DNA of 64,000 bases from Escherichia phage Pu-Krd-SF3. Positions 5,415 through 5,536 of the stretch are shown in pieces; position 1 is the first letter of the stretch; the number at the start of each line of letters is the position of its first letter. Both the position numbers and the translations under genes were made by a program. The notes beneath the pieces are model-generated. The model saw only the letters and a program-made list of their open reading frames with translations, was not told the origin of the DNA and did no database searches. The stretch is from sequence record PQ249397. One strand, 5' to 3'.

Positions 5415-5443
5415 GGGAGAGCCGAGGCTCTCCCTTTTTATTT
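5415..5443 (+). terminator. rho-independent terminator
   Basis: GGGAGAGCCgaGGCTCTCCC hairpin followed by TTTTTATTT. Confidence 0.7.
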
Positions 5444-5464
5444 CAAAAATTTTTTCACAAAACG

Positions 5465-5494
5465 GTTTACAACCAAAGCATACTGTGGTACTAT
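5465..5494 (+). promoter_or_regulatory. T4-type early promoter (motA)
   Basis: GTTTAC 5465-5470, 18-nt spacer, TACTAT 5489-5494; near-identical cassette to the one at 23213. Confidence 0.6.
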
Positions 5495-5536
5495 ACAACT
5501 ATCAACTACTGATAACAGAATTACGGAGATTAGAAA

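Follow-up and report, generated by a model that had tools for sequence, protein, structure and literature searches.

Terminator-linked early promoters upstream of motA and frd.3 in a T4-like phage: near-identical cores very probably produced by ectopic gene conversion

Anatomy of the cassettes at motA and frd.3

We analyzed a window of 64,000 nucleotides (Escherichia phage Pu-Krd-SF3, sequence record PQ249397), which comprises the first 64 kb of a T4-like phage. The plus strand of the window corresponds to the minus strand of T4 and starts at rIIB. Site A is located between motA.1 (5260-5409), which is preceded by gene 52 (3935-5263), and motA (5537-6172). Site B is located between gene 32 (22234-23142) and frd.3 (23286-23513), and site C, at 1825, between denB (1251-1808) and an 87-codon open reading frame (1882-2145). 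The promoters of nrdC.10 and e.8 are called D and E, respectively. According to the annotation of Escherichia phage Pu-Krd-SF4 (PQ759884) and T4, site A is orthologous to the motA.1/motA junction of T4 and site B to its 32/frd.3 junction. The 401 bases around the feature under study matched Pu-Krd-SF4 at 100%, at the same coordinates, and were 95-99% identical to hundreds of Tequatrovirus (T4-like) genomes.

Pu-Krd-SF4 and Pu-Krd-SF1 were taken as the closest relatives of the window. They are identical to each other around motA; Pu-Krd-SF1 has an extra annotated ORF (7250-7468), and its distal long tail fibre gene has 3240 nt (9768-13007) versus 3783 nt (9768-13550) in the window and Pu-Krd-SF4. 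A repeat search of the window also returned a 288-nt unit present twice in tandem (58439-59014, 77% identity) and two pairs of segments, 44609-44639/46661-46691 and 44783-44811/46831-46859, which are 90-97% identical and lie about 2.05 kb apart. The latter suggest two paralogous genes in a tandem arrangement.

Cassette A begins, on the plus strand, with an intrinsic terminator hairpin (5414-5435) placed after the motA.1/gene 52 unit. The stem AGGGAGAGC/GCTCTCCCT encloses the loop CGAG and is followed by a T-run (5435-5443). A consensus scan and ViennaRNA gave 9 bp and -17.6 kcal/mol (z -4.0), and none of 200 shuffles folded as well. Further downstream, there is an A/T-rich region resembling an UP element (AAAAATTTTTTCACAAAACG, 5445-5464), which is common to B, D, E and other members of the family. 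The core early promoter (5465-5494) consists of the -35 element GTTTAC(A) (5465-5471), a 17-bp spacer (5472-5488) with TGn at 5486-5488, and the -10 element TACTAT (5489-5494). The discriminator ACAACT (5495-5500), the predicted +1 (A5501) and the motA leader complete the cassette (5495-5536). The leader contains a predicted RegB-type site, GGAGATTAGAA (5525-5535), which doubles as the Shine-Dalgarno (SD) sequence of motA (ATG at 5537).

Cassette B has the same order of elements on the plus strand. The gene 32 terminator hairpin GGGGACC-CTAGA-GGTCCCC (23165-23183; 7 bp, -14.3 kcal/mol, z -2.0 in the same scan) is followed by a T-run (23184-23194). The UP-like region (23195-23212) and core promoter extend to 23242, with GTTTAC at 23213-23218 and TACTAT at 23237-23242. 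The spacer, AACCAAAGCATAATGTGG, is identical to that of the motA promoter at 17 of 18 positions. The remaining part (23243-23285) comprises the discriminator, the predicted +1 (A23249) and the frd.3 leader with a 7-bp hairpin (23249-23266) and the SD GAGG; it contains no GGAG, and the frd.3 ATG is at 23286. Thus the promoter at both A and B reads TTTACA-N17-TACTAT, with TG at -15/-14 and AAAAATTTTTTCACAAAAC upstream. No sequence homology exists between the hairpin stems of A and B; the homology of the two cassettes begins in the T-run.

A shorter relative had been proposed at 1825, and it proved to be real. Site C (1810-1881, plus strand) has GTTTAC at 1825-1830, TACTAT at 1849-1854 and the predicted +1 at A1861, upstream of the ORF at 1882-2145, and it has GTGGTACTATACAACTATCAACTAC in common with site A. 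It lacks a hairpin and its UP region overlaps the denB stop codon.

The sequence-only reading held that at both A and B a strong terminator hairpin precedes an early promoter, which drives motA or frd.3 together with the genes that follow. The hairpins were found at both sites, GC-rich and continued by a U-tract as in intrinsic terminators, and the architecture as a whole fits the anatomy, the T4 literature and the annotation of Yersinia phage fPS-90, where a 'terminator' and a 'predicted early promoter' are marked at both orthologous sites. The gene 32 hairpin is annotated as a rho-independent terminator in phage wV7. T4 early promoters are composed of UP, -35, TGn and -10 elements with additional consensus regions, and their UP elements have been described (Hinton 2010, PMC2988021); all four elements of this promoter class are present at A, B and C.

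We observed that the gene 32 terminator has its loop in either of two orientations, depending on the phage: the window, T4 and Lv5cm have GGGGACC-CTAGA-GGTCCCC, while T2, EH2 and Pu-Krd-SF1 have the inverted form GGGGACC-TCTAG-GGTCCCC. The inversion occurs across differing promoter alleles, so it is either recurrent or recombined.

We infer promoter and terminator activity in this phage, as well as the exact start sites, from sequence. The hairpin and U-tract would end the upstream transcript, which is the gene 52/motA.1 unit at A and gene 32 at B. The T/A-rich tail of the terminator would continue directly into the UP-like element and then into an 'uber' sigma-70 promoter (UP, -35 GTTTACA, 17-bp spacer, TGn, -10 TACTAT). 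Host RNA polymerase, unmodified or Alt-modified, would fire this promoter immediately after infection, starting at an A 7 nt past the -10; A5501, A23249 and A1861 were predicted from this spacing. The expected products are the motA mRNA and the frd.3-frd.2-frd.1-frd mRNA. In T4, motA is expressed as an immediate-early gene, its transcription beginning at 1 min (PMC9697503). The frd.3 RNA belongs to the most abundant NAD-capped RNAs of T4, and +1A starts, with which the predicted A is consistent, were reported for NAD-RNA promoters as a class, not for frd.3 individually (bioRxiv 10.1101/2024.04.04.588121).

Leaders downstream of the promoters

The sequence-only reading also suggested that a shared leader, ACAACTATCAACTAC, could be a common regulatory target, for example for RNA processing or translation control. 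A search of the window located this motif at 1855 and 5495 only, which means at sites C and A, while site B reads ACAACTATCGGCAATAC. Moreover, 6 of the 15 bases of ACAACTATCAACTAC are discriminator DNA upstream of the predicted +1 and not RNA. Since the -10 element of A is at 5489-5494 and the predicted +1 is A5501, ACAACT belongs to the discriminator and only ATCAACTAC would be transcribed. In a gapped alignment the leaders of A and B regained similarity, as ACT(A/G)CTGATAA after a 5-nt insertion in B, and then diverged completely. The proposed role of ACAACTATCAACTAC is therefore unsupported, as B lacks the motif and the near-identity of A and B is missing in T4, T2 and most relatives.

We did not detect structure beyond that of shuffled sequences in the motA leader counted from the predicted +1 (z +0.19 on 39 nt; z -0.93 on 20 nt). 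The site C leader did not fold and was no better than shuffles. The frd.3 leader has a 7-bp hairpin which starts at the predicted +1 (23249-23266, -7.6 kcal/mol, z -5.2 on 24 nt). Found at B alone, it is located within the inserted part that B does not share, and in T4 and one IMG/VR genome it contains a C.A mismatch. The hairpin might shield the RNA at its 5' end. A 5'-terminal stem-loop of the whole family (AUCA-N5-UGAU) was considered and rejected, given the site-specific frd.3 hairpin, the shuffle-like motA leader and the unfolded site C leader. A reading of TGCTGA in the frd.3 leader as a MotA box was rejected by inspection, as there is no -10 at the required spacing. An Rfam scan of positions 1-26000 of the window returned no family at gathering score.

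In the early leaders of T4, the RegB site GG*AGRAYARAA is the established target of post-transcriptional control (PMC3014915). The predicted RegB-type site in the motA leader matches this consensus at 10 of 11 positions, and the leader around it is unstructured. GGAG is absent from the frd.3 and site C leaders. A perfect consensus, GGAGAATAAAA, is present in the leaders that follow the promoters at 23927, 39782 and 40174 (approximately 23975-23985, 39825-39835 and 40220-40230, respectively). RegB/S1 cleavage sites are the established 'common regulatory target' of early leaders, of which motA has a near match, but they differ from ACAACTATCAACTAC: the motif is another one and it is located in the SD rather than at the 5' end. 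There is no evidence for a dedicated leader target at A and B.

Shared promoter core and its alleles at the gene 32/frd.3 junction

The near-identical sequence that had been claimed for both sites was found at 5448-5503 and 23197-23251, with 51 of 53 positions identical. The mismatches are 5464 g/23212 t and 5483 c/23231 a, and there is a 1-nt length difference in the upstream T/A run. The identity spans the UP element, -35 GTTTAC(A), the entire 17-bp spacer, TGn and -10 TACTAT, down to approximately +3. A repeat search independently recovered a family of three members: 5431-5503, 23179-23251 (88% ungapped) and 1791-1863 (62%). The 17-mer GGTACTATACAACTATC occurs at exactly three places in the window (1847, 5487 and 23235), whereas about 0.1 matches would be expected by chance even with 3 mismatches allowed.

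We compared, in register, 12 early-promoter candidates of the window, defined by GTTTAC, 17-18 nt and TAnnAT on the plus strand upstream of ORF starts. All of them share GTTTAC, TG, TAnnAT and A/T-rich upstream regions, and TATCAACTAC is present in the same register at 4 of the 12. The spacers of A and B are identical at 17 of 18 positions (0.94), while the mean over pairs of candidates is 0.39 (sd 0.15). The similarity of A and B is therefore not confined to the promoter hexamers. A second pair of candidates, 34086 and 47021, also reached a spacer identity of 0.94. These early promoters (34086-34139 and 47021-47074) are 94% identical over 54 nt, a stretch that starts at GTTTAC, includes the -10 and the complete leader and reaches the SD (CATAACATGAGGA), and probably present the same conversion phenomenon as discussed below, at other sites.

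In IMG/VR, two complete T-even genomes (UViG_2974787500 and UViG_2974742932) contain the GGTACTATACAACTATC box at 5-8 early-promoter sites per genome, in all cases in the same register behind GTTTAC-N18. The IMG/VR scan with this 17-mer box showed that spacer types recur at different loci, and that leader/SD modules such as GATACGGATTTGGAGAATAAAATG precede at least five unrelated ORFs. Three 17-mer matches were inside unrelated sequence with no promoter context and were set aside. Over many sites and phages, the boxes TTTCACAAAAC..GTTTACA and TGGTACTATACAACTATC are invariant and the spacers between them vary.

Several exchanges were seen at other positions. The promoter before ORF 2388 (2330-2375) reads TGTGGTATTATTACCTTATC in the window and TGTGGTACTATACAACTATC in Lv5cm and an IMG/VR genome, with near-identical flanks; we read the difference as another short patch swap, of the -10/discriminator box. 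The gene downstream of site C (MKFKF..., region 1861-1884 of the window) has three different leader/SD modules among phages, and T4 carries another small ORF, ndd.6, at this position. The junctions of the leader/SD swaps fall directly after CAACTAC. In an IMG/VR T-even genome two degraded cassettes, at approximately 3284-3300 and 2819-2835 of their sequences (both on the minus strand), have lost the T-run, UP and -35, so that the terminator stem directly adjoins the promoter spacer or the -10. They are similar to the 'half PeSLs' (PeSL, promoter-early stem-loop) of Comeau 2014.

We extracted site B from 17 Tequatrovirus genomes and compared the 110-nt flanks and the 18-nt spacer between and within allele classes. 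The flanks were approximately 95% identical, and the spacer occurred in three unrelated alleles. The motA-type spacer, AACCAAAGCATA(C/A)TGTGG, is present in the window, Pu-Krd-SF1, Lv5cm and EH2. The T4-type spacer, AAGCATAAAGCTTTATGG, is present in T4, ime09, SH-1 and W143, and the TCC-type spacer, ATCCTTGTCCTTCCATGG, in T2, wV7, RB51, fPS-90 and others. Identity between classes was 94.8% upstream and 95.9% downstream (94.4% and 97.4% within classes, respectively), while for the spacer it was 52.6% between and 93.4% within classes. Since the flanks are alike and the spacers diverge between classes, a short patch was replaced within otherwise unchanged DNA.

Every allele of site B copies a different resident early promoter, A, D or E. 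The T4 frd.3 promoter has flanks like those of the window and a different spacer, AAGCATAAAGCTTTATGG, and its 57-mer is identical (57/57) to T4 'early promoter 54.4' with its terminator, between nrdC.11 and nrdC.10. GenBank U76612 annotates a terminator, -35, -10 and 'early promoter 54.4' there. The T4-type 57-mer was found in 452 records at 516 places, with two places in each T4 strain, and the genome of the window itself retains it at 114954-115010, outside the window. The TCC-type 57-mer (397 records, 552 places) is located before e.8 in T4 (70658-70714) and also at site B of RB51. The motA-type 57-mer was found in 478 records at 515 places; therefore approximately 37 genomes have both A and B copies. 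This agrees with the 37 of 494 records that showed at least 95% identity to the B region of the window. The pairing of A and B thus occurs in only approximately 8% of Tequatrovirus records. The two copies of EH2, at A and B, agree at every position of a 46-nt segment which extends from TTTTTTCACAAAACGGTTTAC through the spacer to ...ACAACTATC. Site A of the window matches the sequence upstream of motA in T4 across the -35, spacer, TGn and -10 to approximately +15; T4 and the window differ by 1-2 nt in the T/A run that follows the terminator, and their leaders by a 1-nt indel (TGATAACAG in the window versus TGATACAG in T4).

We consider it very likely that A and B are T4-type terminator/early-promoter (PeSL) cassettes, whose near-identity comes from ectopic gene conversion of the promoter core. 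Direct observation covers the anatomy, how far the identity extends, the structure of the alleles and the presence of matching donor copies. In the proposed mechanism, two boxes common to the family, of approximately 25 nt and 19 nt (...AAATTTTTTCACAAAACNGTTTACA and TGGTACTATACAACTATC), would act as homology arms. Short-patch ectopic conversion between them would have replaced the frd.3 promoter spacer by the spacer of a second early promoter resident in the genome: the motA promoter in the lineage of the window, early promoter 54.4 (nrdC.10) in T4 and the e.8 promoter in T2 and RB51. The patterns of alleles would be compatible with recombination within one genome, between co-infecting phages, or by template switching in break repair. 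Breaks made by SegG were considered as a driver of conversion at B and set aside, as there is no simple link: EH2 lacks segG and has the motA-type allele, while T4, the window and Lv5cm have segG and differing alleles.

Convergence on the T4 early-promoter consensus (hexamers and UP), or chance, might also make two early promoters look alike, and all 12 candidates of the window do share GTTTAC, TG, TAnnAT and the A/T-rich upstream region. This explanation is refuted by the A/B spacer identity, which lies far above the candidate mean; the threefold exact 17-mer and the identical 57-mers carried by paired sites in hundreds of genomes also speak against it, and we give it practically no credence. 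Alternatively, the extended identity, including ACAACTATC(AACTAC), could be a dedicated cis-regulatory signal for common control of motA, frd.3 and the ORF downstream of denB, which would bind a phage or host factor or act as a 5' element of the RNA (processing, stability, translation). The invariance of TTTCACAAAAC..GTTTACA and TGGTACTATACAACTATC next to variable spacers would suit such a signal, as would the presence of TATCAACTAC in register at a third of the window promoters, the high abundance of NAD-capped frd.3 RNA in T4 (bioRxiv 10.1101/2024.04.04.588121), and the incompletely understood shut-off of early promoters and their selective response to Alt (PMC3014915, PMC2988021). However, the full motif is missing at B and 6 of its 15 bases precede the predicted +1, the motA and site C leaders are no more structured than shuffled sequences, no Rfam family was found in 1-26000, and the known RegB target GGAG is present at A and missing at B. 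The spacer identity of A and B is also not found in T4, T2 and most relatives. As B pairs with A here, with D in T4 and with E in T2, there is no conserved regulatory coupling of motA and frd.3, and we regard a dedicated signal as quite unlikely.

The cassette might instead be an active mobile element that copied itself to the frd.3 site by means of a dedicated site-specific recombinase or nuclease recognising the stem-loop or the promoter. PeSL mini-circles were detected for RB49/phi1, whose authors speculate on a stem-loop-binding protein (PMC2839356), and B, D and E are located within approximately 1-2 kb of the free-standing homing endonuclease genes segG, mobD and segB (PMC2988022). Such an element would be very hard to reconcile with the unrelated hairpins of A and B, which have only the T-run, promoter and first leader bases in common, and with a replaced patch at B of only about 16 nt of spacer between the shared boxes, as homology-driven conversion predicts. 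The cassettes have no associated recombinase, and EH2 has the motA-type allele at B without segG. Gene conversion of the promoter core remains our preferred explanation. The invariance of the two flanking boxes could reflect selection beyond contacts with RNA polymerase, which is compatible with the conversion model. It is improbable, though conceivable, that the UP-proximal box TTTCACAAAAC-N-GTTTACA and the box TGGTACTATACAACTATC(AACTAC), which covers the -10, discriminator and initial transcribed region, set apart a functional group of T-even early promoters whose distinguishing property is more than strength. Such a property could be a selective response to polymerase ADP-ribosylated by Alt/ModA, early shut-off, or efficient NAD-capped initiation at T(-1)A(+1). 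If so, the spacer swap and the 5' hairpin specific to frd.3 could tune the frd/td nucleotide-synthesis unit between lineages.

Relation to PeSL cassettes and classical T4 early promoters

The regulatory element itself is ordinary: catalogues of terminator-linked T4 early promoters go back decades, and the PeSL literature already describes how they serve as recombination linkers. What the present case adds is modest and concerns evolution. At the gene 32/frd.3 junction the promoter core was overwritten repeatedly by copies of three resident promoters, and donor, recipient and tract boundaries can be read directly from public genomes. This case supports homology-driven concerted evolution of phage promoters. 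It also calls for caution, since near-identical promoters within one genome are no proof of shared regulation.

A and B are members of the composite terminator/early-promoter cassettes of T-even phages, the PeSLs. As an element they are of a known kind, and the conversion reading introduces no new mechanism. For the pair PST and T4, Comeau et al. 2014 (PMC4122927) described PeSL cassettes with the consensus TTTACW-N17-TAYWAT, and in RB49/phi1 PeSLs were demonstrated to have promoter and terminator activity and to recombine among themselves (Arbiol et al. 2010, PMC2839356). A homology of less than 50 bp is sufficient for T4 recombination (cited in PMC2839356). At A and B, a stem-loop capable of termination lies directly upstream of the promoter, which reads TTTACA-N17-TACTAT with TG behind an AT-rich region (AAAAATTTTTT upstream at both sites). 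The SD and start codon are at the 3' end (GGAG at 5525-5528 and ATG at 5537; GAGG at 23274-23277 and ATG at 23286). Multiple copies mark recombination junctions between related phages, as seen from the 5-8 box copies in each of the two IMG/VR genomes, the three cores of site B and the leader/ORF swaps at C. Site C has no stem-loop upstream of its promoter, and it is therefore a member of the promoter family and not a full cassette.

The likeness to PeSLs concerns the order of elements (stem-loop terminator, AT-rich region, sigma-70-like early promoter, SD, ATG), the dispersed similar copies that serve as recombination substrates, and the swapping, seen at site C, of leader/SD modules and of the ORFs behind them at the boundaries of cassettes. 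In their published role, PeSLs act in hyperplastic regions, where ORFs between neighbouring PeSLs are inserted, deleted or replaced. In contrast, A and B flank conserved genes 17.7 kb apart, and the exchange at B involves the promoter core (spacer) only, with three alternative alleles. The classical T4 early promoters, listed by Wilkens and Rueger and reviewed by Hinton 2010 (PMC2988021), have the same UP/-35/TGn/-10 architecture as A and B, and among them the motA early promoter was described by Uzan, Brody and Favre 1990 (cited in PMC3014915). The core of the T4 frd.3 promoter is that of promoter 54.4, unlike the motA-type core of the window.
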